Part shown: one piece after another, positions 35,941 to 52,425 of the stretch
Layout of the letters: each line of letters begins with the position of its first letter
Numbering within the stretch: position 1 is the first letter of the stretch
NCBI GenBank assembly: GCA_948890655.1
Contig: CAQTYU010000006.1
Coordinates: 7,655-71,654 of the forward strand
Reading direction: 5' to 3'
Source: Christensenellaceae bacterium
GTDB lineage: Bacteria; Bacillota; Clostridia; Christensenellales; Borkfalkiaceae
Length of the DNA: 64,000 bases
Position numbers and translations under genes: made by a program
The notes under the pieces: model-generated
Seen by the model: the letters and a program-made list of their open reading frames with translations, nothing else
What the model was told of the DNA's origin: nothing
The model's database searches: none

Positions 35941-37596
35941 CTACGGCAATAAAAAAGGAAAAGTCTGTTGCATCGCAACAGACTTTTCTACGGGTTCGTC
36001 GAACGAGTGGTGGAGCGTGGCTTTTGAAATACGAACACTGCCCCCGCCCGTTGAGGTGGGGGTATTTTCGTTTTCCTCGAAATTTTCCGCCAGCTCGACG
36101 TCCTCGGAGGCTTGCGGATACCCGACAACCTCGCCACCGTCTATATTAAAGTAAATTATGAATTTATCGTCATACAAGTAAAAGCTATTTATCAGAGCGT
36201 CCACAACACGCTTTTGGAAATCCTTATCGGCGGGATTGCCGCGCTCAAAGGTTTTGAGCCACGCTATAAATTGAGCCTTTGACACCGGAATTTTTGACGC
36301 AGCCACGAGCCCGTCCCGGTCGTTGAGGAGCTCGTTTTTTTGTGCCTCCAAATCCTCCACGCGCTGGTTGAGCTTTGCGCGTACCATTTTGCTGTCGGCG
36401 TCTATAAAGGCGTTGACGGCTTTTTCTATTTCCTCCTCGAGTGCTGCGACGCGGCGCTCAATAGCTTTTACGTTTTCCTCGTTGAATTCGTTTTGATAAA
36501 GCGCCATAACGCGGTCGGCTATAAAATCCATACGTTTAGGCTCGAGCACATACTCAAGGGTAAGCTCGACGACGAGCTGCTCGAGAAAGTCTTTTCTTTC
36601 GCTGCGCTTATTGCAAGTATGGTATTTATACTTTTTGCCGCAAGCATAATAGTAGTAGGTGGCAGCGCGTCCCGTGCCACTCACTCCGACCATACGAGCC
36701 CCACAATGCCCGCAGTACGCTTTCCCTTGCAAAATGTAGTCCTCTTTCGCTTTGAGGGCTGCCGGGGCTAATTTGCGCCTTGCAAGCCGTTTCTGCACGA
36801 TTTCAAAGGTAGCTTTGTCTATGAGTGGGGGATATATATTTGTGTACACCGTGCCGTCGTGCTCAACCTCGCCTATATACTTGCGGCTGGTGAGGTTGTT
36901 TTGAAAACTTGTAAGTGATAGGGGTTTATTTTTACTATTTTTATAACCGCGTCGCGTAAGCTCCGCCATTATATCCTTTTTTGAGGTGCCTTTCGCGTAC
37001 GCCTCGAACACATACCGGACAAGCGGCGCCGTATCCTCGTCAATCACCACGATTTTGCGCGGCTTGCGGTCGCCGGCACTGCGCGGGTCGTCTATGACTT
37101 TATAACCGAGCAGGGGGCGCCCGCCGGTAAAATTGCCCTTTGCGTAACTTTCACGCAGCCCGCGGGTAACTTTCTGCGAGAGCTCCTCGCTGTAGTATTC
37201 CGCCATACCGATATAAAAGTTTTCGAGGAGGATACCGTCAAGATTTTTCGAGCCGTCCACGTTGCGAGCGGTGCGCTGCGTGGCGGATATTACCGTCTTG
37301 CCGTTTTTCTGCAAGTGGTATTTGTTTATCGCTATTTCGATACTGTTACGTCCGAAACGGTCGATTGCATACACGAGCACAATATCCCACTTTGCGGCGG
37401 CGCTGTCTTTGAGCAACTGCTGGAACGCCGGGCGAATATCATTTCGCCCAGTGAGGTGCTCGTCCTCGTATGTACGGACTATTTGCAAATCGTTTGCGGC
37501 TGCAAACTTGCGGCACTCGGTAAGCTGCCCCTCGATAGACTGGTACGTCTGCGTGCTGCCGGGGCTATACCGCGCATATACGACGGCTTGCCTCAT
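35941..37596 (-). CDS. large serine recombinase (phage integrase)
   Basis: The 551-aa product has an N-terminal resolvase domain (VVYARYS...SIEGQ, DRFGRN), a recombinase domain, the zinc ribbon CGHCGARM...YYACGKKYKYHTC, and a coiled-coil C-terminus. Confidence 0.92.
   Translation of the reverse strand: MRQAVVYARYSPGSTQTYQSIEGQLTECRKFAAANDLQIVRTYEDEHLTGRNDIRPAFQQLLKDSAAAKWDIVLVYAIDRFGRNSIEIAINKYHLQKNGKTVISATQRTARNVDGSKNLDGILLENFYIGMAEYYSEELSQKVTRGLRESYAKGNFTGGRPLLGYKVIDDPRSAGDRKPRKIVVIDEDTAPLVRYVFEAYAKGTSKKDIMAELTRRGYKNSKNKPLSLTSFQNNLTSRKYIGEVEHDGTVYTNIYPPLIDKATFEIVQKRLARRKLAPAALKAKEDYILQGKAYCGHCGARMVGVSGTGRAATYYYYACGKKYKYHTCNKRSERKDFLEQLVVELTLEYVLEPKRMDFIADRVMALYQNEFNEENVKAIERRVAALEEEIEKAVNAFIDADSKMVRAKLNQRVEDLEAQKNELLNDRDGLVAASKIPVSKAQFIAWLKTFERGNPADKDFQKRVVDALINSFYLYDDKFIIYFNIDGGEVVGYPQASEDVELAENFEENENTPTSTGGGSVRISKATLHHSFDEPVEKSVAMQQTFPFLLP
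35951..35988 (-). terminator. rho-independent terminator of the integrase operon, lying inside the last codons of the integrase ORF
   Basis: On the minus strand GAAAAGTCTGTTGC-GAT-GCAACAGACTTTTC is followed by CTTTTTT. The ORF stop codon lies 12 nt beyond the T tract. Confidence 0.75.
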
Positions 37597-38165
37597 TTTG
37601 ACCCCCTCGGCTTATAAGTATAGCCTTTTGCGTGTTTCGCTTGTGCTTTCATAAGCTCATTATCAACGACGCGACGAAAAGAGGGGTATTTCATATATTC
37701 CCGCGACATAGCAGCGTCTTGCCAATATTCGACAGCCTTTGCGGTTGAAATCTTGAGATAAAGGCGTCCGAGTTTTGTGTTTGGTATCGGGTCGCAAATC
37801 TTTGCTTGAGGGCTCTTTTTATATTCCTGCTCTTGTAAAATATAAAAACGTTCCGCGCTTTCAAAATCCAGCTCCGCCTCGTATAATTCGGCGAGCGTAC
37901 CGTAAACACTCCACAGGTCGAAATCGTCATTTTTCAATGGAGCCGATAGGTATTTTTCAAATTGCAAAATCGCCTCTTTTCGATATTGAGCGCCGAGGTA
38001 CGTATAGGCAAAAGCACAAGCCAGCCAAGCGAGTGGGTCGTCAGTATCGCGTCCGCGCTCAATCACTTGCATAGCGACGGCTGCACGGTTAGGGTTGTCA
38101 ACCTCAAAATTTTTATGTAGTAGCGCGCAAAGTGCGTTGCCGTCCATTTTCTTAAATACACCCAT
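37593..38165 (-). CDS. hypothetical TPR-like helical protein in the lysogeny module
   Basis: The 190-aa product is helical-repeat rich (W/Y/A/L spacing like TPR). It abuts the repressor stop and overlaps the integrase start by ATGA. No HExxH or other catalytic motif is seen. Confidence 0.6.
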   Translation of the reverse strand: MGVFKKMDGNALCALLHKNFEVDNPNRAAVAMQVIERGRDTDDPLAWLACAFAYTYLGAQYRKEAILQFEKYLSAPLKNDDFDLWSVYGTLAELYEAELDFESAERFYILQEQEYKKSPQAKICDPIPNTKLGRLYLKISTAKAVEYWQDAAMSREYMKYPSFRRVVDNELMKAQAKHAKGYTYKPRGSK

Positions 38166-38558
38166 TTACGCCTTGCCCTCCTTAAGCTCGTAAGCATAAG
38201 AGAGCAGGGCGTTTTTTTGCCGTGTACTCAATTCGCCGAAAATCTGCAAGAGCTCCGTTTCAAACTCCGAAAGCTCAAGCGTGGCGGTGCCGTTTATCGT
38301 TACCACGTTGTGGCTGTTTTCATTGCCGAAAATTCCTTGTGCGACGACGGAGTGCTGCGGCTCGCGTCCGCTTACGAGATAGTCAACCGATACGCCGAAA
38401 AAGTCCGCTATACCCTCCAGTAGGTCGGAGGCTGGGCTTGTGCGCTTTGCTTTCCAGTCCGATATTGTGGCAGGGCGAACACCTATTCGCTTTGCGAGGT
38501 CGCCTTGTTTTTTGTTTTGCTGCTCCAAGAGTGTAAAAACACGCTCCGAAATTGTCAT
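38166..38558 (-). CDS. CI-like phage repressor (XRE HTH, 130 aa)
   Basis: The HTH is QNKKQGDLAKRIGVRPATISDWKAKRTSP. The start at ATG 38558 is preceded by the conserved GGAGGACATACCAAA sequence. The gene is divergent from the early operon. Confidence 0.8.
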   Translation of the reverse strand: MTISERVFTLLEQQNKKQGDLAKRIGVRPATISDWKAKRTSPASDLLEGIADFFGVSVDYLVSGREPQHSVVAQGIFGNENSHNVVTINGTATLELSEFETELLQIFGELSTRQKNALLSYAYELKEGKA

Positions 38559-38573
38559 TTTGGTATGTCCTCC
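38556..38573 (-). promoter_or_regulatory. start-associated sequence copy A (GGAGGACATACCAAAATG)
   Basis: This is an exact 18-mer on the minus strand ending in the repressor ATG. Confidence 0.85.
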
Positions 38574-38614
38574 GATATTTTTTTGCAAAACCGTAAAAAA
38601 TCCCGTAAAAACCC

Positions 38615-38643
38615 TTGACAAATTCGCAAAACCGTAATAAAAT
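38615..38643 (+). promoter_or_regulatory. rightward early promoter candidate (TTGACA-17-TAAAAT)
   Basis: -35 lies at 38615-38620 and -10 at 38638-38643. The spacer contains the repeat GCAAAACCGTAA. Confidence 0.55.
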
Positions 38644-38734
38644 ATAAGCAAGGTTATGGAAAACCGAAACAAATCCATAACGAACTTGCAAACGGCAAGC
38701 GGGATTTTTTGCGATAATTGATAGTAGCGTATTT

Positions 38735-38763
38735 ATTATAGCAAATTAAATTCCGCTTGTCAA
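38735..38763 (-). promoter_or_regulatory. leftward repressor promoter candidate (perfect TTGACA-17-TATAAT on the minus strand)
   Basis: -35 lies at 38758-38763 and -10 at 38735-38740 on the minus strand. It points toward the rightward promoter. Confidence 0.55.
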
Positions 38764-38801
38764 TAAGCAAGACTATTAAAAACCGTAAAGTTTCGGAAAT
38801 A

Positions 38802-38819
38802 GGAGGACATACCAAAATG
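38802..38819 (+). promoter_or_regulatory. start-associated sequence copy B
   Basis: This is an exact GGAGGACATACCAAAATG, followed by AAC. Confidence 0.85.
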
Positions 38820-39506
38820 AACAAACAACGCAGACAACAATTTAACGAGCTGGCGGAAAAAATCCGCGCGCTTAAGGACGAGGTGGAAACGCTCCGCGAC
38901 GAGGAGCAGGACTATTACGACAATATGCCCGAAAGTTTCCAAAACGGCGAGAAAGGCGACAAGACACAAGAGGCAATCGACGCGCTGGACGAGGCGCTCG
39001 ACAGCCTCGACAGTGCAGCAGACAGCCTCGACACGGGCGGATACATCTACGACGACGGCGGCAGAGCGGCTGCCGGTTTCAAAGGCACAACAGGCGACTG
39101 CGTTACCCGGGCAATAGCTATTGCAACCGGCAAGCCTTACAAAGAGGTTTACGACGCGCTCAACGAGCTTGCAAAGCGCGAGAGGACGGGGAAAAGAAAG
39201 CGCAAGATTTCCTCCTCGCGCACCGGCGTATATCGCAGCACCTACGGAAAATATTTGCAGACGCTGGGGTGGGAGTGGGTGCCCACTATGAAAATAGGGC
39301 AAGGCTGCCGGGTACATCTGAACGCAGCAGAACTGCCGAGCGGCACCATTATGGTAAAAGTTACGCACCACCTCACGACAATGATTGACGGCGTTATACA
39401 CGACATTTACGACCCGCGCCGCATTGCACCAAACAACGCAACCGAGGGGGAGCTCTCCGAGCGCTGCGTTTATGGATACTATCACAAAAAGGAGGTGAAA
39501 GGCTAA
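38817..39506 (+). CDS. early protein: N-terminal acidic coiled coil plus C-terminal papain-like (C39-like) putative cysteine peptidase fold
   Basis: The start is defined by the conserved start sequence. The C-terminal half has the order GDC(V)TRAIAIATG ... G ... THHLTTMIDGVIHD, that is Cys ... His ... Asp. The fold assignment was made by eye only. Confidence 0.6.
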   Translation: MNKQRRQQFNELAEKIRALKDEVETLRDEEQDYYDNMPESFQNGEKGDKTQEAIDALDEALDSLDSAADSLDTGGYIYDDGGRAAAGFKGTTGDCVTRAIAIATGKPYKEVYDALNELAKRERTGKRKRKISSSRTGVYRSTYGKYLQTLGWEWVPTMKIGQGCRVHLNAAELPSGTIMVKVTHHLTTMIDGVIHDIYDPRRIAPNNATEGELSERCVYGYYHKKEVKG

Positions 39507-39721
39507 TGCTACACGAAAGGCTCAAAGAGGCAAGAACAAAGGCGGGACTGTCGCAGGAAAAAGTCGCCAAAGAGTGCGGAATTACGCAGCCGGCGTATTT
39601 CGATATTGAGCACGGCGACCGTGCGCCCTCGCTGGCAGTGGCAAAGCGTCTTGCAAACCTTTTCGGCGTGTCGCTTGACTGGCTTGTCGGGACGGACGCG
39701 GGCGGAAAAGGCACCGCATAG
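39506..39721 (+). CDS. Cro-like XRE HTH protein (71 aa)
   Basis: The HTH is LKEARTKAGLSQEKVAKECGITQPAYFDIEHGDRAPS. The start overlaps the upstream stop (TAATG). Confidence 0.8.
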   Translation: MLHERLKEARTKAGLSQEKVAKECGITQPAYFDIEHGDRAPSLAVAKRLANLFGVSLDWLVGTDAGGKGTA

Positions 39722-39731
39722 GAGGCGCAAG

Positions 39732-39747
39732 GGAGGACATACCGGTG
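39732..39747 (+). promoter_or_regulatory. start-associated sequence copy C (variant with GTG start)
   Basis: The sequence is GGAGGACATACCGGTG. Confidence 0.7.
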
Positions 39748-39978
39748 GAAACTTACGTGCAAATCGGCGTCGCGGTGCTGCGCGACACCACAACCGGGGA
39801 GCCGCTCAAGCCTACCATACCACTATTTGCGCAAAGCAAGACGGAGCCCCAAGCGTCGGGTATCACCCGAGGCGAGGAAAAACTTTTAACCGACGTCGCC
39901 GGCGTATTCGTGGATATATTCCGCAGATACAGCGACGAAATCAAAAAAATCAAGTCTATGGAGGACACGCCAAAATGA
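39745..39978 (+). CDS. hypothetical early protein (77 aa)
   Basis: The GTG start is preceded by the conserved sequence. Confidence 0.6.
   Translation: METYVQIGVAVLRDTTTGEPLKPTIPLFAQSKTEPQASGITRGEEKLLTDVAGVFVDIFRRYSDEIKKIKSMEDTPK
39960..39977 (+). promoter_or_regulatory. start-associated sequence copy D
   Basis: GGAGGACACGCCAAAATG has two substitutions and is followed by AAC. Confidence 0.75.
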
Positions 39979-40313
39979 ACGAAAAGAAACTCTACAAGGT
40001 AACGATTACCGACGAAAACGGCAAAGTGGTGCACGAGGTGGAAAGCGATTGCATAATCGCGGCGATTTCCGACCCGTCCAAGGGCTCGAAAGAGCAATCG
40101 GCAATCCACGGCGTATATATGACGAATTGCCCGGGCGTTACGATACAGCACACTTTCCAAGTGCTGGATACCGTAAAGAGGGAGGCAATCGCCAAAAACC
40201 CGGCGCTCGGCATTATGCTGGCAATGGACAGCCTCGAGCGTATCGCTCAAAAGCACGGCGTAAAGCTCGGCGAGGACGAGGACGACGGCGAGGGCTCACG
40301 GGGGGGTATTTGA
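39975..40313 (+). CDS. hypothetical early protein (112 aa, acidic tail)
   Basis: The start is defined by copy D. It is the downstream part of track ORF 39606-40313. There is an ATGA overlap with the previous gene. Confidence 0.6.
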   Translation: MNEKKLYKVTITDENGKVVHEVESDCIIAAISDPSKGSKEQSAIHGVYMTNCPGVTIQHTFQVLDTVKREAIAKNPALGIMLAMDSLERIAQKHGVKLGEDEDDGEGSRGGI

Positions 40314-40346
40314 CCTTTTTAACGAAATAATGAAACGGAGGTAAAT

Positions 40347-40853
40347 ATGCGACTGAAAGAGTTACGCGGCGACCTTAAGCAAAAGGAGGTCGTGCAGCAC
40401 ATCAAAAAAACCGATAAGCGGGTGGATAGCGGGCTTTATTCCAAGTATGAAAACGGCGTCGCGCTGCCCACTCCGGAGCAACTGAAAGCTATTTGCGAGC
40501 TGCTGGGCGTTGAGCCGCTGGACATTTACAGCGAGGTGGAAATCAACCTCAAAGGCACCAAGGCGACCGTACATAAAGCTGCCGCCAAGGATAGCGAGGA
40601 GCCGGACACGTACAACCTTTGCGTGAGGCTCGAGCGCGGCGCTGCAAGGTGGTTTCGCAAAGATATACTCGCGGCGTGCGGGTATCGCAACCTTACCCAC
40701 TGGGTAAACGTCGGACTGCTGCGGCTCAAAAAAGAGTACGAGAAAGTTACGGCAAAGGCAAAGAAAAAAAAGCCGCCCGAATTGAGCGACAAAACGGACG
40801 GCACGATAATTGAGGACATACCAAAATCAACAACTAACGCTATAAGACTATAG
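40347..40853 (+). CDS. HTH (XRE-like) domain protein, 168 aa
   Basis: The N-terminal HTH-like segment is LKQKEVVQHI...YSKYENGVALPTPEQL. An ACGGAGG RBS precedes the start. The C-terminal region is unknown. Confidence 0.6.
   Translation: MRLKELRGDLKQKEVVQHIKKTDKRVDSGLYSKYENGVALPTPEQLKAICELLGVEPLDIYSEVEINLKGTKATVHKAAAKDSEEPDTYNLCVRLERGAARWFRKDILAACGYRNLTHWVNVGLLRLKKEYEKVTAKAKKKKPPELSDKTDGTIIEDIPKSTTNAIRL
40811..40828 (+). promoter_or_regulatory. degenerate relic of the start-associated sequence (TGAGGACATACCAAAATC)
   Basis: It matches 16 of 18 positions, with the SD G changed to T and ATG changed to ATC. It lies inside the last codons of 40347-40853. Confidence 0.7.
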
Positions 40854-40875
40854 CACAAAAATTTCAATTTGTCAA

Positions 40876-40893
40876 GGAGGACATACCAAAATG
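40876..40893 (+). promoter_or_regulatory. start-associated sequence copy F
   Basis: This is an exact GGAGGACATACCAAAATG. Confidence 0.85.
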
Positions 40894-41202
40894 AAAACGA
40901 TTTACAAGTGCGAAATTTGCGGCAAGGAGTTTCCCGACTGGGAGGAGTGCAGCAAGCACGAAAAGACTTGCAAGGAAATTCACGCAACCGGCTTGCGCCT
41001 TGCGTCGGAGCTTAACGACGCGGTGAAAGCCGCAAACGAACGCGGAGGCTGCGAGGTCGGTATCTGCGTCGGAGCGGACGAAACGATTTACCGCTTTATC
41101 GGCGCCGAATACAGCGCAAAAGAGCGCCTCGTCGTGCTCGACATAGACACGGACGACAACCTCGGCAGAAAGATAGGAGGAGCAAGCAATGGCAACGACT
41201 AA
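40891..41202 (+). CDS. small zinc-finger-like protein (103 aa)
   Basis: The N-terminus carries CEICGKEF...CSKHEKTC, a C2HC/C2H2-like motif. Confidence 0.6.
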   Translation: MKTIYKCEICGKEFPDWEECSKHEKTCKEIHATGLRLASELNDAVKAANERGGCEVGICVGADETIYRFIGAEYSAKERLVVLDIDTDDNLGRKIGGASNGND

Positions 41203-42016
41203 CGGAATTTATACCGCTATAAACGGAATTATGGAGGAAATCGGGGCAATCGGTAAGACCTCGAAAAACCAGCAGCAGGGTTTTATGTATCGCGGTATCG
41301 ACGCGGTTATGAACGCGCTACAGCCGGCGCTCGTCAAGCATAAGGTTTTCGTTGTGCCGGAAATCCTCGAGCAAAAGCGCGAGGAGCGCGTTACCGGAAA
41401 GGGCGGCAATCTCATATATTCAGTGCTCAAAATCAAATACACCTTTTACGCAGAGGACGGCTCCAGCGTTTCCGCTACCGTCATAGGCGAGGGTATGGAC
41501 AGCGGCGACAAGGCGAGCAATAAGGCTATGAGTGTGGCGTTTAAGTATGCTTGCTTTCAAGTCTTATGTATCCCGACGGAGGAAATGAAAGACCCGGACG
41601 CGGAAACGCCGCCCGAGAGCTTACCGAAACCCACGCCGGCGCAGCTGGAGGAGCTGCAAAAGCTCAATATCGACCTTAACAACGTGGCAACCTATTTCAA
41701 GGTAAAAGTGGAGTTTTTGAGCGCGCAGCAAGTCCAGTCCGCTATTGATATGAAACGCAAGAGGCTGGCAGCACAAGAGGCGAACGCGGCAGAGAACGGC
41801 GAGCAGACGCCCGCAGCAGCACCGCAGAAAACTGGCAAGCCCAAGACCAAATACCAGCAGATTAAAGAGCTGGGCGCAGAGCGCGGCTTTGATATGGAGG
41901 ACGTTACGGCGCTGGCGCTGGAAATGTTCGGCACCGATAAAATCAACAGCCTTTCGGACAAGGATTTCAAGGCGCTGCTTGATAGGGTAAACACCGACGT
42001 GGAGGGCACGAACTAA
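41189..42016 (+). CDS. ERF-family single-strand annealing protein
   Basis: The pattern I..I..E...I.K...N....F.YRGID.V..AL.P.L.KH is followed by the DKASNKAMS..FKY block typical of ERF. Confidence 0.8.
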   Translation: MATTNGIYTAINGIMEEIGAIGKTSKNQQQGFMYRGIDAVMNALQPALVKHKVFVVPEILEQKREERVTGKGGNLIYSVLKIKYTFYAEDGSSVSATVIGEGMDSGDKASNKAMSVAFKYACFQVLCIPTEEMKDPDAETPPESLPKPTPAQLEELQKLNIDLNNVATYFKVKVEFLSAQQVQSAIDMKRKRLAAQEANAAENGEQTPAAAPQKTGKPKTKYQQIKELGAERGFDMEDVTALALEMFGTDKINSLSDKDFKALLDRVNTDVEGTN

Positions 42017-42897
42017 TGGGCACGGCGATTTTTAACAAAGAAAATCATACCTATACGCTGGACGGCAAAATCCTTATAAGCGTTACCCAGCTTATGCGCA
42101 AGCACGGGCTCGCCCCGGATTACTCGGGAGTAAACGAGGCGGTGCTCCAGCGCAAGGTGGAGCGCGGGACGCTCATACACGAGGAAATCGAGCGCTATAT
42201 CAAACACGGCGAGCTCGGCTTTACATCAGAGCAAGACGACTTTATCAACTTTGCCAAAGAGCTGGGGCTTAAGAATATGCGCTCCGAGCAAATCGTCAAC
42301 GACGACCTCGTGGCGGGTACTATCGACCTTATGGCGGAGCGTGTCGCCGGCAAAGCTACCATAAAAGTGCTTGCCGATTACAAGACCGGCACGGCGGTGG
42401 ACAAGGAGGCGGTACGCTGGCAGCTTTCGCTTTACGAGCGTTTGAGCGGCGAGAAATTCGACGAGTTTTACGTTTTCCACCTTTGCGAAAAGAGCAAGTA
42501 CATACTGCTGGAGCATATCCCCGCCGAGGAGGTCGAAAAGCTGCTCGAGTGCGAGCGCAAGGGTGAGATATACAAACCTCGCACGCTTGTGGTGCCGAGC
42601 GAATTACTGGCAGCCGCAGAACAAGCAGAGCGCGCCGTTAAAGTGGCAGAGGCAGCCAAGAAAGAGGCAGACGCCAGCGCCGCAAAGATACGCGCCCAGC
42701 TTATCGCGGCAATGGAGGCGCAGGGCATAAAGAGCTTTGAAACCGCCGACAAGTCTATGCTTATCACTTACGTGGCACCCTCGGAGCGCGAAACTATCGA
42801 CAGCGCAAGACTGAAAGGGGAGCACCCGGAGCTTGCCAAAAAGTACGTAAAGACCTTGACAGTCAAGGCGTCGGTGCGCATAACGGTGCAAGGTTGA
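42016..42897 (+). CDS. PD-(D/E)XK family nuclease (recombination exonuclease partner)
   Basis: GTLIHEEIE ... GTIDLM ... LADYKT fit the D...(D/E)xK arrangement. The gene is adjacent to Erf. Confidence 0.65.
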   Translation: MGTAIFNKENHTYTLDGKILISVTQLMRKHGLAPDYSGVNEAVLQRKVERGTLIHEEIERYIKHGELGFTSEQDDFINFAKELGLKNMRSEQIVNDDLVAGTIDLMAERVAGKATIKVLADYKTGTAVDKEAVRWQLSLYERLSGEKFDEFYVFHLCEKSKYILLEHIPAEEVEKLLECERKGEIYKPRTLVVPSELLAAAEQAERAVKVAEAAKKEADASAAKIRAQLIAAMEAQGIKSFETADKSMLITYVAPSERETIDSARLKGEHPELAKKYVKTLTVKASVRITVQG

Positions 42898-42898
42898 T

Positions 42899-43471
42899 AT
42901 GCTGGGCTCATTTATCGGAAAGTATAAAGATTGCCTCACGGACGAGCGCGGCGCCGTTGTCGTTTCTTTCACCGTTGAGGGCTCGGAGCGATACGCTGCA
43001 AGGCAATGCGCGGCAGCGGCGCAGACGGCGCTTGCAAGTGGCAAAGAACGGCTCAAAATCGAGGTAAATATCGACAAGCCCAAGCGGTCGCTTAACGCAA
43101 ATAATTACTTATGGCAATTATGCGACAAAATCGCGGCAAAGGTCGGCAGCAGCAAGCTGGACATTTACCGCGGTTACGTGCTTGAGCAAGGCGTATTCGA
43201 GGCTATGGAAATAAACGCCGCAGCCGTAAAGCTCTTTTCCGAGGTGTGGGGCGCTCGGGGCGACGGCTGGCTCGTCGAGATTATGGACGGCACGGAGCGG
43301 GACGGTTACGTTTTACTCCACGCCTACAAGGGCAGCAGCACCTACGACAAGGAACAAATGGCGCGCCTTATTGATAGCGTCGTAACGGACGCAAAAGAGC
43401 TCGAAATCGAAACGCGAACGCCGGAGGAAATCGAGCTAATGAAACAGCGCTGGGAGGGCTCACGCTTATGA
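42899..43471 (+). CDS. NinB/Orf-like recombination mediator (tentative)
   Basis: KRSLNANNYLWQLCDKIA resembles the RSLDQNRKLWA motif of lambda NinB and its Gram-positive phage relatives. Confidence 0.45.
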   Translation: MLGSFIGKYKDCLTDERGAVVVSFTVEGSERYAARQCAAAAQTALASGKERLKIEVNIDKPKRSLNANNYLWQLCDKIAAKVGSSKLDIYRGYVLEQGVFEAMEINAAAVKLFSEVWGARGDGWLVEIMDGTERDGYVLLHAYKGSSTYDKEQMARLIDSVVTDAKELEIETRTPEEIELMKQRWEGSRL

Positions 43472-43767
43472 AATCCAAACGGACGAAAGCCCTTTCAATT
43501 ACTCCGAAAGTCAAAAAAACAGTTTACGAGCGGGACGGCGGGAGGTGTGTTTTGTGTGGTAGCCCTCACGGGCTGCCGGAGGCGCACTATATCCCGCGCT
43601 CGCGTGGTGGGCTCGGCATACCGGAAAATATCGTAACGCTTTGCCGCAACTGCCACCGTGAACTCGACCAAACTACCCGCCGGGCAGAACTGCTCGAGCG
43701 TGTCAAGGCTCACCTTGATATATGGTACCCGGACTTTTCGGACGACGACCGAATTTATAAAAAATAG
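43468..43767 (+). CDS. HNH endonuclease
   Basis: CVLCGS...EAHYIPRSRGG...NIVTLCRNCHRELD contains the HNH and zinc-ligand motifs. Confidence 0.85.
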   Translation: MKSKRTKALSITPKVKKTVYERDGGRCVLCGSPHGLPEAHYIPRSRGGLGIPENIVTLCRNCHRELDQTTRRAELLERVKAHLDIWYPDFSDDDRIYKK

Positions 43768-43784
43768 GAGGACATACCGAAATG
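43767..43784 (+). promoter_or_regulatory. start-associated sequence copy G
   Basis: GGAGGACATACCGAAATG has one substitution and is followed by AAC. Confidence 0.8.
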
Positions 43785-44213
43785 AACAAAGTTATTTTGA
43801 TAGGCAACCTCGTGCGTGATGTGGAGCTTTCCACGACGCCCAGCGGCGTATCGGTCGCAAAGTTTACCCTTGCGGCAAATCGTACCTTTACGAACTCCGA
43901 GGGCGAACGCGAGGCGGACTATCCCAACATTATAGCGTGGCGCGACCTCGCAGACCGTTGCGCGCAATACCTTTCCAAAGGCAAAAAGGCGGCGGTGGTG
44001 GGTATGCTGCAAACACGCTTGTACGAGGTGGAGGGGCAAAAGCGATACGTTACCGAGGTGGTGGCAAGCGAGGTCGAATTCTTGACACCGAAAGGCGAAA
44101 GCCAACAAGCAGCACCGCAAGGGTACGCGCCGAGAGGCGGCGCGCAACGCCAGCAGAGGAATGGACGGGACGACCTCGTGCCGATTGACGACGACGGCGA
44201 CCTACCTTTCTGA
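43782..44213 (+). CDS. ssb: single-stranded DNA-binding protein
   Basis: The OB-fold N-terminus is MNKVILIGNLVRDVEL. A Gly/Gln-rich linker follows, and the acidic tip is DDDGDLPF. Confidence 0.92.
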   Translation: MNKVILIGNLVRDVELSTTPSGVSVAKFTLAANRTFTNSEGEREADYPNIIAWRDLADRCAQYLSKGKKAAVVGMLQTRLYEVEGQKRYVTEVVASEVEFLTPKGESQQAAPQGYAPRGGAQRQQRNGRDDLVPIDDDGDLPF

Positions 44214-44224
44214 CGGAGGCGTAA

Positions 44225-44944
44225 ATGGAAATCAAAAAAGGCTATTACGCCGTGATACCCGCGACAGTACGCTACGACAAGAGAATACCGGCAAACGCTA
44301 AACTTTTGTACGGCGAAATCACGGCGTTATGCAATCAGAGCGGGCTATGCTGGGCAGAAAACACCTATTTCGCCAACCTCTACGAGGTAAACAATCGGAC
44401 GATACAAGGCTGGATAAATTCCTTACTTAATGCCGGATACATACGCCGCGATATACAGTACGGCGAGGACGGCAAGACGGTTATACGCCGCTGCTTGAGT
44501 ATAGTGTCGTCTGAATTCACCACCCCGTGCACAAATTTTCACGAGGGTGGCGACGAAATCAGCGCTACGGTAGCGCTGAAAAATTCACCTATAATATTAC
44601 AAGATAATACTACAATGAATATTACAAAAAATAATCCCCCTACCCCCGGCAAAAAGAAAGCGCTTTTTGAGCGTATGACGTCGGAAACCGACTTGCCGGA
44701 AAGAGTGAAAGCCTCCATTTATAAGTGGCTGGAGTATAAAAAGTACAACTATCAAGAAATGGGTTTCAAGACTTTGCTCACGATAGTGCAAAGAAAGGTC
44801 GAGGAGTACGGGGCGGACGCGGTTATCGAGCTGGTGGACGAGTGTATCTCGAGCACGTGGAAAGGGCTAATATGGGAAAAGCTCAACAAACGCCCGCCGC
44901 AGCAGCAGCCGAGAAAGCCGCGAAATTACGACGAGGAGGACTGA
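44225..44944 (+). CDS. phage replication initiator / replisome organiser (DnaD-like N-terminal HTH)
   Basis: GYYAVIPATVRYD...ANAKLLYGEITAL is typical of the phage replisome-organiser N-domain. The gene lies upstream of a DnaC-like loader. Confidence 0.7.
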   Translation: MEIKKGYYAVIPATVRYDKRIPANAKLLYGEITALCNQSGLCWAENTYFANLYEVNNRTIQGWINSLLNAGYIRRDIQYGEDGKTVIRRCLSIVSSEFTTPCTNFHEGGDEISATVALKNSPIILQDNTTMNITKNNPPTPGKKKALFERMTSETDLPERVKASIYKWLEYKKYNYQEMGFKTLLTIVQRKVEEYGADAVIELVDECISSTWKGLIWEKLNKRPPQQQPRKPRNYDEED

Positions 44945-44947
44945 CCT

Positions 44948-45805
44948 ATGGAGCACGTAAACGACGCTTTGAGCAAGCTCATACCGCCACCGCAACAGCC
45001 GGACGCAGACGAGTACGTCGGCGAGGACGGGCTTATTTATTGCAAAAACTGTAAGACCTCGCGGCAATTTTTCGAGAATTTTACGGGCGGCAAGCCGGCA
45101 ATCCTCCCCAAGCTATGCAAATGCAGAGCAGAGGCGGCGGAAAAACAACGCAAAGAGGAGGAGGAACGGGAACGCAGGGAGCAGATAGAGAACGCTCGAC
45201 ACAAAGCTATTTCCGTACCCTCATATCGTGGTTATCGCTTTTCGGTGGACGACGGCAAGACCCCCAAGACAACGGAAATATGCAAAAACTACGTGCGCAA
45301 TTTTGCGGAGTTTTCAAAAACGGGGCAAGGGCTCTTATTGTACGGCGACGTCGGGACAGGCAAGACCTTTTATGCTCTTTGCATAGCAAACGCGCTTATT
45401 GACCGCGAATACAAAGTGCTGCATACAAGCCTTGCGGACGTGGTAAAAATGGCGCAAGATTTCGACAACGCCGAAAGCCACTTTATGCGGCTTATGTGGC
45501 AAAAGTGTATTGTTATAGACGACCTCGGCACCGAGAGAGCGACCTCGTTTGCCGAGGAGCAAATCTATAAGTTTATAGACGGTTGCAACACGCACGGCGT
45601 GGCGCTTATCGTAACAACAAACTACACACCCAAAGAGCTGGAGGCAGCGGCGGCGGATACATCAGACTTGACGCACGCCCGAATTTACAGCCGATTGCTC
45701 GAAAAGTGTTTCCCCGTAAGGGTAAACGACATTAAACGCCGAGAGGCAAACACCGCCAAAAACAAGGCGACAGTGGCAGAACTGCTCGGCATAAGTAAAA
45801 AATAA
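44948..45805 (+). CDS. DnaC/IstB-like AAA+ helicase loader
   Basis: Walker A is GDVGTGKT and Walker B is IVIDDLG. An N-terminal Cys-rich segment is present. Confidence 0.85.
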   Translation: MEHVNDALSKLIPPPQQPDADEYVGEDGLIYCKNCKTSRQFFENFTGGKPAILPKLCKCRAEAAEKQRKEEEERERREQIENARHKAISVPSYRGYRFSVDDGKTPKTTEICKNYVRNFAEFSKTGQGLLLYGDVGTGKTFYALCIANALIDREYKVLHTSLADVVKMAQDFDNAESHFMRLMWQKCIVIDDLGTERATSFAEEQIYKFIDGCNTHGVALIVTTNYTPKELEAAAADTSDLTHARIYSRLLEKCFPVRVNDIKRREANTAKNKATVAELLGISKK

Positions 45806-45807
45806 TC

Positions 45808-45825
45808 GGAGGACATACCAAAATG
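45808..45825 (+). promoter_or_regulatory. start-associated sequence copy H
   Basis: This is an exact GGAGGACATACCAAAATG, followed by AAC. Confidence 0.85.
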
Positions 45826-46407
45826 AACAAAATCACACTTACAAGCGACCAACTCAAGAGAGTATTTGAGGTCGCGCAAAGCGCAATCTCTAAAGATGTG
45901 GCGCGCCCGGTATTACAATACGCCAAGGCTACCGTAAAGGGTAGCGAGCTCACAGTGGTGGCGTGCGGCGGCTGGCGCCTTTCAAGGTATAAGCTGGAGC
46001 TCAAAGAACAGGAGGCGGATTTCGGTTTTTATTTCAAGCCTTTTGCGCTCCCCAAGACGTTAATATCCGCGGAAATAGAAAAACTCGACGACAAGGTGAT
46101 ATTTACGCTTAACTGCTCGGAGTGGCAGCAAAGCTATATTTTCCCGCAGCCGTCCGGTGATTTTATCGACGCGGACAAAATTATACCGCCGAGAGCAGAG
46201 GGTTACTCTATAGCGTTTAACGCCAAGGGCTTAATAGAGGCACTCAAGCCTTTTGCTAAATCGGGCGACCGTTACCACATTGTCAAGCTCAATTTTGTGC
46301 CAGTAAACAGTGGCGGCACAAACGCAACGAGCCCCGGAACGCTTACGGGCAAAATCGACGACGCAAACGTGGAAATACTCGTGCTGCCGGTGCGCTGCAC
46401 GGATTAA
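45823..46407 (+). CDS. short DnaN (beta sliding clamp)-like protein, 194 aa
   Basis: The N-terminus (..L..V....SAISKD.ARPVL......V.G.ELTVVA.) resembles clamp domain I. The middle GDFIDADKIIP resembles the G.(F/Y)PDY..VIP linker. The C-terminus ..ISFNAKGLIEALK...VEILVLPVR resembles the DnaN C-terminal end. Confidence 0.5.
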   Translation: MNKITLTSDQLKRVFEVAQSAISKDVARPVLQYAKATVKGSELTVVACGGWRLSRYKLELKEQEADFGFYFKPFALPKTLISAEIEKLDDKVIFTLNCSEWQQSYIFPQPSGDFIDADKIIPPRAEGYSIAFNAKGLIEALKPFAKSGDRYHIVKLNFVPVNSGGTNATSPGTLTGKIDDANVEILVLPVRCTD

Positions 46408-46418
46408 AAGGTGGCGAT

Positions 46419-47522
46419 ATGGAAAAAGACGAATTAAAGTATTTGCAAGCGTTTGATTTCCCGCACAAGGTTATGCGCTCGCAGACAAAAATACTCGAGT
46501 ACATACTAAAACTTAAGGGCAAGGTGTATGTGGCATTTTCCGGAGGCGTCGATAGTACGGTGCTGCTGGATATGACTTGCCGAGTATGGGCGTCGCTTGA
46601 CGAATACCGCGACAAGCCGCTCACGGTTATATTTGCCGACACCGGCAACGAGTTTATGGCGATACGCCGCTTTGTGGTGGAATTCTGCGAGATATGCGAA
46701 AAGCGCCACGGTATTAAAATCGACCTCATAAAGGCGCGCAATAAAGATATAAATTTCTACAATATCCCCGCGACGGTCGGCTATCCGGTGGTAAGCAAAA
46801 AGGTTTCCCGTATGATAAGAGATATACGGACGTGGTGCCGCGAGATTATGGCAGCGCACCAAATCGAGGGCGGGCTTACCCGGGAGGTATTCGAGCGCAT
46901 AATCGTGGAGTACGAGCCCGAAATGACGCACACTATACGCCTTTACTTTACCGGGGTTACAAGCAAAGGGAAAAAGTGCAAGAGCCGCAAGCTGCCGCTC
47001 AAGTGGTATAAACTTTGTTATGCACCTTTTGAGGTGAGCGAAAAGTGCTGCGACATTATCAAAAAAGACCCTTGCAAAGCGGAGGCTAAAAAGCGCAAAC
47101 TTTACGGGCTGGTGGCTACTATGGCAAGCGACAGCAAGCAAAGAGAAAGCGCCTACCTCGCCACTGGCTGCAACTCTTTTAACGGGAGCCGCACAAAAAG
47201 CCAGCCTATGGGCTTTTGGTTTACGGACGACGTAACGGAGTACCTCCGTACCTATTCGCTGGAGTATTGCAAAGATGTTTACGGGGATATTTGCCCGCCG
47301 GGTAGCAGTAAACGCTTTACGAAAGAGCAACATACTGGCTGCAAGCTTTGTCTTTTCGGGTGCCACCTTGAGGACGAGCCCAACCGCATACAGCGCCTTG
47401 CCAGTACGGAGCCCAAGATGTACGACTTTGCTATCAGAAAGGAACAGGGCGGACTAAACTACGGCGAGGTTATGGACTACCTCGGAATACCTTACAAAGT
47501 GGAGGGCGGCGGCAATGAGTAA
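46419..47522 (+). CDS. PAPS-reductase-family PP-loop ATPase with C-terminal Cys cluster (DndC-like architecture)
   Basis: The PP-loop is AFSGGVDSTV and the C-terminal cluster is C-KL-C-LFG-C. The product is 367 aa. Confidence 0.7.
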   Translation: MEKDELKYLQAFDFPHKVMRSQTKILEYILKLKGKVYVAFSGGVDSTVLLDMTCRVWASLDEYRDKPLTVIFADTGNEFMAIRRFVVEFCEICEKRHGIKIDLIKARNKDINFYNIPATVGYPVVSKKVSRMIRDIRTWCREIMAAHQIEGGLTREVFERIIVEYEPEMTHTIRLYFTGVTSKGKKCKSRKLPLKWYKLCYAPFEVSEKCCDIIKKDPCKAEAKKRKLYGLVATMASDSKQRESAYLATGCNSFNGSRTKSQPMGFWFTDDVTEYLRTYSLEYCKDVYGDICPPGSSKRFTKEQHTGCKLCLFGCHLEDEPNRIQRLASTEPKMYDFAIRKEQGGLNYGEVMDYLGIPYKVEGGGNE

Positions 47523-48031: not shown

Positions 48032-48448
48032 ATGGACGTTAAACAATGGCTTTTGCGAGCCTATCGCATAGACCAGCAGATACAAAGCAAAAACGAGCAA
48101 ATCGAGATGTGGGAAACGCTCGCGCAGAAAGTTACGAGCGACCCCTCGGCACTGCCGGGCGGAGGCGGCGGGTACTCCAGCAGGGTGGAAACGTATTGCA
48201 TAAAGATAGCGGACGCACAGGCGGAAATCGAGCGCCAACGCGACGAGCTTATCAGCGTGCGCCGTGAAATAGAGGAGGCAATCAACAAGGTGCAAAATGT
48301 AACGCTGCGGCTCTTACTGGAGCAACGCTATTTGCTTTGCAAAGGCTGGGAGGACATAGCGGAGTTTATGGGGTACTGCGTCGAGTACGTCAAGAGGGAT
48401 ATACACAGGCAAGCCCTCCGCGCAGCTCGTGAAATTATAGCCCCCTAA
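48032..48448 (+). CDS. phage late-gene transcriptional regulator (DUF1492 / sigma-70 region-4-like, RinA/ArpU class)
   Basis: The N-terminal pattern is WL..YR.ID..I. The C-terminal LLLEQRYLLCKGWEDIAEFMGYCVEYVKRDIHRQAL resembles sigma region 4. The gene is the last one before the packaging module. Confidence 0.65.
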   Translation: MDVKQWLLRAYRIDQQIQSKNEQIEMWETLAQKVTSDPSALPGGGGGYSSRVETYCIKIADAQAEIERQRDELISVRREIEEAINKVQNVTLRLLLEQRYLLCKGWEDIAEFMGYCVEYVKRDIHRQALRAAREIIAP

Positions 48449-48664
48449 ATATTCACTTTTACCCTTTTTTATCTTGCCAAAATGCAATATAATGTACAAT
48501 GTGCTCAAGCACAAATCCCGCGGGGCGACCGAGAGGCGCGGGAAAACTGTTTGATTTCGCCGTCGGTATGTTCATTTTGGTAAAAACCTCCTTAAAAGAT
48601 TATACACGACTTGCAAGGCGGGACGGTTTAACAGTTTTACCTCCGCCGAGCAAATCCACGTCAA

Positions 48665-48693
48665 AGCTCTACCGCCCGGTAGGGCTTTTATTA
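48665..48693 (+). terminator. rho-independent terminator ending the early/middle transcription unit
   Basis: A 9-bp stem (48665-48673 with 48678-48686, one G-U pair) closes a 4-nt loop and TTTTATTA follows. Confidence 0.65.
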
Positions 48694-50820: not shown

Positions 50821-52425
50821 ATGGGCTTATTTGAAAAAATCAAAGGAGCGTTCGGTAAAATGGGCGGAAAATTTGCAGCACCGCAGACGGTGAAAGACAT
50901 TTTCGACATAAACGGCGTGCCCAGCTTTCGACAATTTTATGAAAGCGGGATATTGATATGGAAACGCATATACCGCGGTTACTATTCACAGTGGCACGAC
51001 GTCAAGGCTCCGACCATAAACGACAGCGGCGCAAAGCGTCGGCGTGATACACTCAACGCCGGCAAAGCCGTTTGCAGTGAACTGGCGGGGCTTATATGGG
51101 CAGAGAGGTGCAGCGTCGGAGTATCGCGTAAGGATTACAAAGCGGACGAAAAGCACCCCGACAAGCTGGCGGCGTTCGTTGAGCACGTACTTAACGAAAA
51201 CAATTTCAACACAAAAATGCGCGAGCATATCGAGCAAGTTATGGCGCTGGGCGGCGGTACCTTAAAAACGTGGTGCGACATCAAAAAGGACGAAAACGGC
51301 GCCGACATCAAAGGCTCGGAAAAAATCAAGGTCGGCTATGGTATGGCAGACCAATTCGTCCCGCTTGCGTGGAACAACGCCGAGGTTACGGAGGGCGTTT
51401 TTATTTCCCGCGAGGCGAAAGCCGGATACTATTACACAAGGCTGGAGTTTCACCACTGGGACGGCAGCGAGTACGTTATAAGCAATGAGTTATACCGTCA
51501 TAAAATCGGCAGCTCGGAAAATCAAGACATATTCGGGGAGCGCGTGCCGCTCAATGAGTTATACGTAAACCTTTCCAGCGAGGCAAAGGTAAGCGGCTTG
51601 CAAAGGTCGCTTTTTTCGTATTATCGCACGAACATAGCAAACAACCTCGACGACAACAGCCCGCTGGGGGTAAGTATTTACGCAAATGCACTCTCAACGC
51701 TTAAAGCGCTGGACGTTTGTTTTGACAGCTTTGTGCGCGAGTTTACGCTGGGCAAAAAGCGAATAATCGTGCCGTCGTCCGCTATCAGATACGTAAACAA
51801 CCCGGACACCGGGCAGCGGTGCCGTTATTTCGACGCCGACGACGAGGTTTACGAGGCAATGGACACGGACGACCTCGAGAGCTTGCAAATCAAGGACAAC
51901 ACGGTGGAGTTGCGCGTCGAGGAGCACGAGGCGGCAATCAACGCCTTTCTCGGTATCCTTTCCTTTCAGCTGGGGCTTTCGCCCGGCACTCTTACCTTTG
52001 ACAAGGTGGAGGGGCTCAAGACTGCTACCGAGGTTATCTCGGAAAAATCCAAGACCTACAAGACAGTAAAACAACATCAAAGCAGCGTCGAGGAGGCAGT
52101 CAAAAAGCTGGTGCGCAACATCATAGACGTGGCAATCCTTTACGGCATAGAGTACGAGGGTGAAAGCGTCGAAAGCCTTGCGGCTGGCGGGTACGACATT
52201 GCAATCTTTTTCGACGACGCTATTATCCAAGACCGACAAACGAACATCAACGAGGGAGTGCTGCTTGTGAGCAATTCGCTTATGAGCAAAAAAAAGTTTA
52301 TGACCGATAAACTCGGATACACTCCGGAGGAGGCGGACGCGGAGCTCGGACAAATAGCTGCGGAAAGCAATATCACCGGCGCCACGATAGACTTTTCAAC
52401 GCTATTCCCGAAAGGGGGTAGTTAA
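50821..52425 (+). CDS. portal protein
   Basis: The 534-aa product is encoded directly downstream of terL. Size and position are typical of SPP1-type portals. Confidence 0.75.
   Translation: MGLFEKIKGAFGKMGGKFAAPQTVKDIFDINGVPSFRQFYESGILIWKRIYRGYYSQWHDVKAPTINDSGAKRRRDTLNAGKAVCSELAGLIWAERCSVGVSRKDYKADEKHPDKLAAFVEHVLNENNFNTKMREHIEQVMALGGGTLKTWCDIKKDENGADIKGSEKIKVGYGMADQFVPLAWNNAEVTEGVFISREAKAGYYYTRLEFHHWDGSEYVISNELYRHKIGSSENQDIFGERVPLNELYVNLSSEAKVSGLQRSLFSYYRTNIANNLDDNSPLGVSIYANALSTLKALDVCFDSFVREFTLGKKRIIVPSSAIRYVNNPDTGQRCRYFDADDEVYEAMDTDDLESLQIKDNTVELRVEEHEAAINAFLGILSFQLGLSPGTLTFDKVEGLKTATEVISEKSKTYKTVKQHQSSVEEAVKKLVRNIIDVAILYGIEYEGESVESLAAGGYDIAIFFDDAIIQDRQTNINEGVLLVSNSLMSKKKFMTDKLGYTPEEADAELGQIAAESNITGATIDFSTLFPKGGS

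Follow-up and report, generated by a model that had tools for sequence, protein, structure and literature searches.

A start-associated sequence in a Clostridia prophage, paired with a predicted antisense RNA

Start-associated sequences (SAS) were described in Cluster K mycobacteriophages by Pope et al. (2011, PMC3203893), who left open whether a host or phage RNA or protein binds them, and who noted a single reverse site away from the gene starts. Papers of 2024 and 2025 still term their role ill-defined or untested. This report is about a comparable sequence, GGAGGACATACCAAAATG, which recurs at seven gene starts in a prophage of a Christensenellaceae bacterium (GenBank assembly GCA_948890655.1, contig CAQTYU010000006.1). 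The window, meaning the whole stretch of DNA that was analysed, is 64,000 nucleotides (nt) long, and the prophage spans it from about 35.9 kb to its end. An eighth copy of the motif stands away from any start codon, inside the gene of a candidate small RNA read from the opposite strand. Judged by its sequence, the locus is predicted to combine a system of start-associated sequences with an antisense RNA of the phage that acts in trans.

The preliminary description of this DNA had named the Cluster K sequences as the closest precedent, and the motif agrees with them in four positional features. Both are short asymmetric repeats with a Shine-Dalgarno core and conservation that goes beyond this core and, for the prophage motif, probably beyond the bases able to pair with 16S rRNA. 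Both stand mostly at ATG starts, in one orientation, before non-structural genes of unrelated families, and both are absent from the host genome; each also has one odd copy, off gene starts or reversed. They differ in sequence, the SAS consensus being GGGATAGGAGCCC (at up to two mismatches) as against GGAGGACATACCAAAATG here, and the prophage motif is an analogue rather than a member of a homologous family. The SAS have 11-19 copies and their hosts are Actinomycetota, whereas the window's motif has 7-8 copies and its host belongs to the Clostridia. A 17-bp inverted repeat (ESAS) lies upstream of about half of the SAS, while the prophage motif has none and its flanks are only A-rich. Unlike the SAS, the prophage motif stands on the repressor gene itself. 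No partner molecule is known for the SAS, whereas a candidate partner RNA can be named here.

Mycobacterium phage Anaya carries 16 forward SAS and one reverse SAS. The reverse one (L062 39871-39883, about 59870-59882 of the record) follows closely on a plus-strand terminator, in a non-coding gap of 385 bp that separates gp96 from gp97, and a plus-strand RNA from this gap would carry the complement of the SAS, in parallel to the window. A sigma-70 scan around the reverse SAS called no promoter.

Other phage systems share part of this design. The c4 antisense RNA of P1 and P7 (PMC12197685) is a small phage RNA that presents short complementarities in loops, pairs with a ribosome-binding site in trans and blocks translation, as the candidate RNA would do, and both are linked to immunity. 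c4 controls one operon (ant), whereas the candidate would address 7-8 dispersed genes. c4 is processed from a longer transcript; the candidate RNA has its own promoter and has no match to the Rfam C4 family. P22 sar and lambda OOP (PMC12197685) resemble the candidate in being short antisense transcripts that end at an intrinsic terminator and run towards a regulatory gene of a temperate phage, but they act only on the overlapping transcript, whereas the conserved part of the candidate matches distant sites. T4 RegA and RegB jointly shut off many early genes through their initiation regions (PMC3014915; general knowledge). Their effectors, however, are proteins with degenerate targets, and a Pfam search confined to the 20 lysogeny and early proteins of the prophage found no RegA or RegB family. 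RegB cuts within GGAG. Cluster A stoperators are asymmetric repeats as well, scattered over the genome and co-oriented with transcription (PMC3203893), but they are DNA sites bound by the repressor and follow its specificity, whereas the window's motif is unchanged where the repressor has diverged.

The repeated start motif

A scan of the window with GGAGGACATACCAAAATG at up to three mismatches gave seven matches, against 0.00 expected from 100 dinucleotide-preserving shuffles. The seven start-site copies reported before are confirmed, four of them exact and three with one to three changes. The motif consists of a Shine-Dalgarno GGAGG, a fixed 10-nt spacer and the ATG, and all seven copies end on the ATG or GTG of an open reading frame (ORF) on the same strand; they are asymmetric and co-oriented with transcription. 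One exact copy, on the minus strand at 38556-38573, ends on the ATG of the CI-like helix-turn-helix (HTH) repressor gene (38166-38558). The other three exact copies are on the plus strand: 38802-38819, at the first rightward early gene (38817-39506, a 229-aa ORF); 40876-40893, at the start of a gene for a 103-aa protein (40891-41202), where the copy abuts the -35 box of the antisense promoter described below; and 45808-45825, at a 194-aa ORF (45823-46407). The 103-aa protein has a CxxC...HxxxxC motif and is called ZnF here, which is a label, its Pfam zinc-finger matches being sub-threshold only. The three variants, also on the plus strand, are GGAGGACATACCGGTG at the GTG start of a 77-aa ORF (39732-39747), GGAGGACACGCCAAAATG with two mismatches at a 112-aa ORF (39960-39977), and GGAGGACATACCGAAATG with one mismatch at the start of ssb (43767-43784). 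The eighth copy, TGAGGACATACCAAAATC (40811-40828, plus strand), is not at a start codon and had been missed.

Two details of the preliminary description need correction. It had counted five of the seven genes as beginning ATG-AAC, but the actual number is four (38817, 39975, 43782 and 45823), and five is reached only if a partial variant at 48573-48591 is included. It had also held the motif to be absent from translationally coupled genes, but two copies contradict this. The one at 39960 is contained in the preceding ORF, whose stop shares an ATGA with the new start, and the one at 43767 includes part of the HNH gene's TAG stop codon. Its statement that late structural genes lack the motif stands, since none of the gene starts from 48.9 to 64 kb has a copy.

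The same description had named a generic host ribosome-binding site as the finding that would undo the idea. This was ruled out by the host gene starts and by a scan of one genome per species. Positions 1-35,900 contain roughly 45 starts of host genes, and neither the motif nor its spacer is found at any of them. In the scan of 185,579 species, the exact 18-mer was found in 21 stretches, against a chance expectation of about 17 by our own estimate, and all of the multi-copy stretches were prophages homologous to the window's. Pumilibacter muris CLA-AA-M08 has such a prophage, about 90% identical, with four exact copies of the motif, all of them within the prophage; a Christensenellaceae genome bin has a homologous prophage that is 98% identical. 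Scans of viral and metagenome contigs added L001 (76% identical, eight copies) and about fifteen close relatives, and protein-guided look-ups added the more distant L050, L053, L054, L055, L056, L057 and L059. Copy numbers are 6-8 in L001, L025, L054, L057 and L059.

Across these relatives the motif was compared in 54 distinct contexts. The conserved block begins sharply at GGAGG and ends at ATG, and only A-richness, with no conserved repeat, is seen upstream. The genes behind it have 17 different N-termini. The spacer ACATACCAAA is conserved at 87-100% per position. Judged by the usual 3' end of 16S rRNA (..CACCUCCUUUCU), this spacer is probably not complementary to that of the host.

One could read the motif as nothing but an optimised cis-acting initiation region, served by no trans factor and with the antisense unit irrelevant to it. 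The identical 18-mer is the start region of pyruvate:ferredoxin oxidoreductase, a typically highly expressed enzyme, in six Oscillospiraceae and Acutalibacteraceae genomes, where it lies within a conserved leader (..GTATTACTTTATCCTTAAA-motif; L003 5532-5549, L006 376-393, L011 5141-5158, L015 529-546, L017 2837-2854 and L021 7038-7055). These six occurrences are one evolutionary event. The cis-acting explanation also fits the fact that every start-site copy ends on a start codon, and the A-rich upstream flanks. On the other hand, the phage's other GGAGG genes use spacings of 5-10 nt, so that the motif's 10 nt is at the long end, and the late structural genes, which would be expected to be the most highly expressed, do without it. 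Efficiency of initiation predicts neither a letter-identical 10-nt spacer over at least 12 unrelated gene families, in phages of 76-98% identity, nor an invariant non-start copy within a promoter-terminator unit. We consider this explanation unlikely. The comparison speaks neither for nor against the translation enhancer that had been proposed earlier. If a motif-bearing phage infected hosts like these six, its antisense RNA could also hit pyruvate:ferredoxin oxidoreductase, a gene of central metabolism.

A candidate antisense RNA at the eighth copy

The eighth copy lies within a small unit on the minus strand, placed between the gene of a 168-aa HTH protein (40347-40853, plus strand) and the ZnF gene. 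The unit begins with a promoter at 40847-40875, made of TTGACA (40875-40870), a 17-nt spacer ending in TGc, and TATAGT (40852-40847). With the start taken 6-7 nt after the -10 box, the candidate RNA would be about 78 nt long, from 40841 to 40764, and would end in a terminator hairpin (40802-40772) and a U8 tail (40771-40764). The seed GAUUUUGGUAUGUCCUCA (40811-40828) comes about 13 nt downstream of the putative start near 40841. It is perfectly complementary over 16 nt to the motif part GAGGACAUACCAAAAU, from the Shine-Dalgarno through the AU of AUG. As a sequence prediction, this is an independent transcription unit, with its promoter, a short non-coding transcript and an intrinsic terminator.

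The promoter matches the consensus at 11 of 12 positions and has an extended -10 TG. Only ten sites of this quality occur on both strands of the whole window. Five of these stand directly upstream of host genes and two are the promoters of the lysogeny switch, and matches of this kind are therefore predictive in this genome. No operator-like box was found near the small-RNA promoter.

The 78-nt RNA folds into a 5' hairpin and the terminator hairpin at -28.3 kcal/mol (z = -5.33), a stability reached by none of 200 shuffles, and the minimum-energy structure makes up 74% of the ensemble. In this predicted fold the apical loop of the 5' hairpin displays UUUUGGUAU, the complement of the conserved spacer AUACCAAA. 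No Rfam family matched anywhere in the window at the gathering score; with E allowed up to 10, the hits in 40700-40900 were at chance level.

The last part of the 168-aa HTH gene extends into the unit, and phages differ in the frame in which this DNA is read. Most homologues of the HTH protein have 154-155 aa and end in ...RRDN* at a TGA that is the first three bases of the eighth copy, so that the seed is intergenic in most relatives. In the window and one other sequence this DNA, about 97% conserved, is read in another frame through to 40853, because the A-run at 40764-40771, which is the RNA's U-tail, has eight A against six or seven in relatives. This difference may be a real polymorphism, and a homopolymer sequencing error is also possible. 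Identity to L001 is 90-97% over 40770-40829, as against 63-90% over most of the HTH gene. Since different phages read the conserved DNA in different frames, its conservation is, on this comparison of sequences, not a coding constraint.

Predicted targets were told apart by their longest uninterrupted match to the RNA. RNAduplex energies, computed for windows of 37 nt, had been tried and rejected as a discriminator; they separated targets only moderately, with long imperfect pairings reaching -27 kcal/mol. Of the 71 gene starts in the window, all background genes have a longest perfect complementarity of 4-8 nt to the first 40 nt of the RNA. The motif genes have 16 nt at four starts and 11 nt at two, the GTG-start ORF at 39732-39747 being one with 11 nt; the 39975 gene has a split match of 7 + 7 nt around two mismatches. 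A conserved seed, accessible in the loop of the predicted folds, is in this way complementary to several Shine-Dalgarno and start regions. Among the roles that had been proposed for the motif, that of a small-RNA target has gained specific support from this candidate RNA gene, itself a prediction.

Relatives, rivals and the prophage setting

A covariance model was built from eight versions of the unit. It found one full-length copy (70-103 bits) in every motif-bearing relative whose contig includes the region, and the weak hits elsewhere are the antisense sides of motif copies. The conservation set comprised 13 sequence-distinct loci and two more cut by contig ends. The unit is present even where the HTH protein is only 58-62% identical. 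The architecture of the promoter is kept while its letters change: L001 has TTGACA-17-TGa-TAGAAT despite a 4-nt insertion, L050 has TTGACA-16-TGa-TATACT, L053 TTGACA-17-TATAAT, L054 TTGACT-17-TGc-TATACT and L056 TTGACA-16-TGa-TATAAT, and L059 has a weaker -10 box. No lineage departs from the seed core UGGUAUGUCCUCA, although the RNA diverges in its 5' end and its linker. Every lineage forms a 5' hairpin around the seed, and in five of them the seed's 5' half is in the apical loop.

Pairing in the terminator stem is retained through changes of sequence. At pair 6 the lineages have either C-G or U-A, and their inner stems read GUUUUG/CAAGAC, GCCUUG/CAAGGC or GUCUU/AAGAC. In five of five lineages the terminator is 3.4-8.8 kcal/mol more stable as a minus-strand than as a plus-strand RNA, because of G-U pairs. 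This comparison of stems was based on the fold of each sequence instead of the model-fitted alignment, as a bulge of one base in L050 and L053 is put in the wrong place by the covariance model and by MAFFT alike.

One relative, L061, does not carry the motif. Its ZnF protein is 58% identical, it has Sak in place of Erf, and GGAGGACATACC is absent from the 1.9 kb available. At 540-680 on its minus strand, in the same position as in the window, it has a promoter (TTGACT-17-TGg-TATACT) and a predicted 77-nt RNA with a 5' hairpin, a terminator and a U-tail. The single-stranded linker of this RNA, UUCCUUGACUU, is complementary to the initiation region of L061's own ZnF gene, AAGUCAAGGA(G). This is the only co-variation between lineages that was obtained, and it suggests, from the sequences at hand, that the antisense gene is older than the dispersed motif. 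Scans of viral contigs for phages with a different motif, using the HTH protein and the HTH alignment, gave no additional contig, and a scan with the L061 small-RNA sequence gave no match. The ZnF protein family has 15 clusters only.

L061 bears on a second alternative, that the antisense RNA is real but acts only in cis, on the convergent transcript over the HTH 3' end and the ZnF start, and that the other matches are a by-product of a duplicated initiation region. The whole length of the RNA is complementary to the early transcript, and L061 has the unit but no multi-copy motif in its available sequence. However, it is precisely the motif-matching stretch of the RNA that does not vary. The remainder has the same complementarity in cis and yet diverges freely, and the dispersed copies are also under strong conservation. 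We hold a purely cis-acting antisense RNA to be improbable.

A third alternative takes the motif for a protein site, either for a RegA-like repressor acting on RNA or, like a stoperator, for the repressor, another HTH protein or the ZnF protein acting on DNA. The asymmetric copies, co-oriented with transcription, are stoperator-like; among the motif genes lie those of several small HTH proteins and that of ZnF; and the 40811 and 40876 copies are 65 bp apart. Probable operators of the repressor, however, are found elsewhere in the switch, as five boxes of the form AAAACCG(T/A)AA within 38581-38788. L025, L043, L044, L054 and L055 have AAAACGATAT-type sequences in the switch instead of these boxes, and their repressor region is only about 79% identical to the window's. 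We infer from these sequences that the five phages are heteroimmune on an otherwise similar backbone. Their motif is nevertheless identical at the repressor gene and at the first early gene, and the motif appears not to track repressor specificity. It was rejected as a repressor operator on this ground, the other repeats fitting that role, and the protein operator offered earlier as a possible role finds no support. The lack of a RegA/RegB-type family among the 20 early proteins searched, and a fixed register with ATG that suggests a function at the RNA level, also count against a protein site, which we regard as very unlikely.

The mosaic structure of the relatives touches on a fourth alternative, in which the motif is a recombination linker for the exchange of cassettes by the phage Erf or by host recombination, its copies hitch-hiking with the mosaics. 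With L022, L030, L040 and L046, homology extends up to the motif's final base, 38819, and no further; the next gene there is another one (MLDP... vs MNKQ...). Homology to L023 and L035 ends 8 nt past the 45808 copy, again before unrelated genes (MPKI...; MKIE... in L001). The genes at 38817-39506 and 45823-46407 are thus ones that close relatives have swapped for unrelated ones, the phage encodes Erf, and the motif precedes the 17 different N-termini already mentioned. But the far ends of both replaced cassettes, at the next gene start (39483 and 46420), have no motif. Breakpoints at gene starts would be expected anyway, since only such mosaics are viable, and 18 bp is very short for homologous exchange. 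Second-order selection for exchange would also leave unexplained the strict conservation, the orientation and distance to ATG, and the antisense unit. A linker function has a slim chance of being the explanation. The earlier proposal of a module-boundary site holds as a correlate, in that homology breaks at the motif, which is also expected for any sequence fixed at gene starts.

A second complementary element was found in what is probably the leader of the late operon. Directly 3' of the ArpU/DUF1492-like late regulator gene (48032-48448, plus strand) is a gap of 250 nt. Its first part, a conserved block at 48449-48506 (plus strand), is probably the late promoter region, as its position and conservation suggest. 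It is followed on the plus strand by a structured stretch of about 185 nt (48507-48692), probably a late-operon leader or a second small RNA, which ends in a strong hairpin and a T-run (48663-48692). The second element, GUUCAUUUUGGUAAAAACCUCC (48570-48591, plus strand), lies in a large loop of this stretch. It is complementary to (U)ACCAAAAUGAAC(A) and the GGAGG of the motif, with perfect matches of 14 nt to the 38817 and 45823 starts and of 11-12 nt to three others, and it would account for the recurrent AAC second codon. Rfam gave only chance-level hits around it, at E up to 10, and this second RNA is less certain than the first.

This element is the partial variant at 48573-48591 that had been described on the opposite strand, before a 38-codon minus-strand ORF (48459-48575). 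The sequence is there as described, but an element of a leader RNA on the plus strand, complementary to the motif, is the better reading. The ORF was rejected as a gene, since L001 has only 10 codons in its place, unrelated in sequence; the nucleotide block is kept in L001, L030, L035 and L055, and the ORF is not. L057, which has a different late module, has no second element. In L001, the ssb start (5472-5492, minus strand) and the late-leader element (776-796, plus strand) are identical over 21 nt (GGAGGATTTACCAAAATGAAC), including a TTT variant seen at no other starts, so that the leader element is the exact reverse complement of the ssb start. Selection for pairing or gene conversion could have produced this identity.

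The prophage has a GC content of 51-55%, as against 39-51% in the left part of the window. On the minus strand are the gene of a large serine recombinase (35941-37596), a 190-aa ORF and the repressor gene. The plus-strand early region has a Cro-like HTH gene and, downstream, genes in the order Erf, HNH nuclease, SSB, DnaC-like ATPase and PAPS-reductase-like protein; terminase, portal and tail genes lie 3' of the late regulator. The switch has a rightward early promoter at 38615-38643 (plus strand, TTGACA-17-TAAAAT, 11/12 consensus) and a leftward repressor promoter at 38735-38763 (minus strand, TTGACA-17-TATAAT with TG, 12/12 consensus). The two are near-consensus and face each other, with predicted transcripts that overlap by about 80 nt; this is the face-to-face layout of coliphages 186 and P2, and the layout of lambda differs. 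A perfect TTGACA-17-TATAAT match also lies at 53688-53716 (plus strand), within the late gene 52425-54446, and may be an internal promoter for the structural genes downstream. None of 50,697 GenBank phages was matched by 38000-46500 in a Megablast search.

Proposed mechanism and significance

We are led to suspect that the motif is a standardised initiation region, a shared address for a phage antisense RNA that blocks the initiation of translation, and on the sequences compared we give this about an even chance of being right. The small RNA would be made from a constitutive sigma-A-type promoter. Its apical loop UUUUGGUAU would contact the spacer AUACCAAA first, and the duplex would then extend over the Shine-Dalgarno and the start codon. 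A small RNA that pairs over an initiation region blocks 30S binding; here the duplex would exclude the 30S subunit and would probably also expose the messenger RNA to double-strand-specific cleavage. Seven genes would thereby be held down together, namely cI, the first early gene, the two small ORFs, and the genes of ZnF, SSB and the 194-aa protein.

Strong rightward early transcription would act against this. The rightward transcript would run convergently through the small-RNA gene with its full complement, and because of this it would both interfere with the small RNA and titrate it. Titration would set a threshold and make the on/off switching of the early genes sharper. In the lysogen, the small RNA would add a layer of silencing at the RNA level that is independent of repressor specificity, and the late-leader element could shut off the motif genes late in infection.

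Several points weigh against this mechanism. The small RNA is known as a sequence prediction only. An automatic count of pairs on the model-fitted alignment, made with few independent sequences, was not significant; it found two double-change pairs, a number reached by 61 of 500 shuffles. As the seed core and the motif are both invariant within the family, the co-variation of seed and target comes down to L061, whose contig is short and where a -35-like TTGACT forms part of the repeated decamer. The complementary stretch is no longer than 12-13 nt in L053 and L054. The repressor start is itself a target, which makes a simple role as an immunity RNA not self-evident, although it may provide feedback. 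And the pyruvate:ferredoxin oxidoreductase genes demonstrate that the 18-mer can be used as a plain good initiation region, with no sign of an antisense RNA there. Several of the alternatives discussed above can also coexist with an antisense RNA acting in trans.

A wider conclusion is put forward more tentatively, as a possibility that we think falls somewhat short of an even chance. The phage would have standardised the starts of its early genes and of its own repressor for joint gating by one antisense RNA, with the late-leader element maybe acting likewise, and start-associated sequences would be RNA addresses, following the same logic in Cluster K.

The prophage motif is the same phenomenon as the SAS, met here in Clostridia of the mouse and human gut and their phages, which are unrelated to the mycobacterial pair, and it offers the first concrete candidate partner molecule for a start-associated sequence. 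This suggests a testable mechanism for the SAS themselves. If the antisense RNA is confirmed, it would also provide a search rule for other phages, namely a motif that recurs at gene starts and has one further copy, in antisense, between a promoter and a terminator. The seven genes would then form a phage regulon that is set by their common initiation region, and not by promoters, and that is superimposed on the repressor switch. Because such regulation would be independent of repressor specificity, cross-immunity between phages with differing repressors would be possible.

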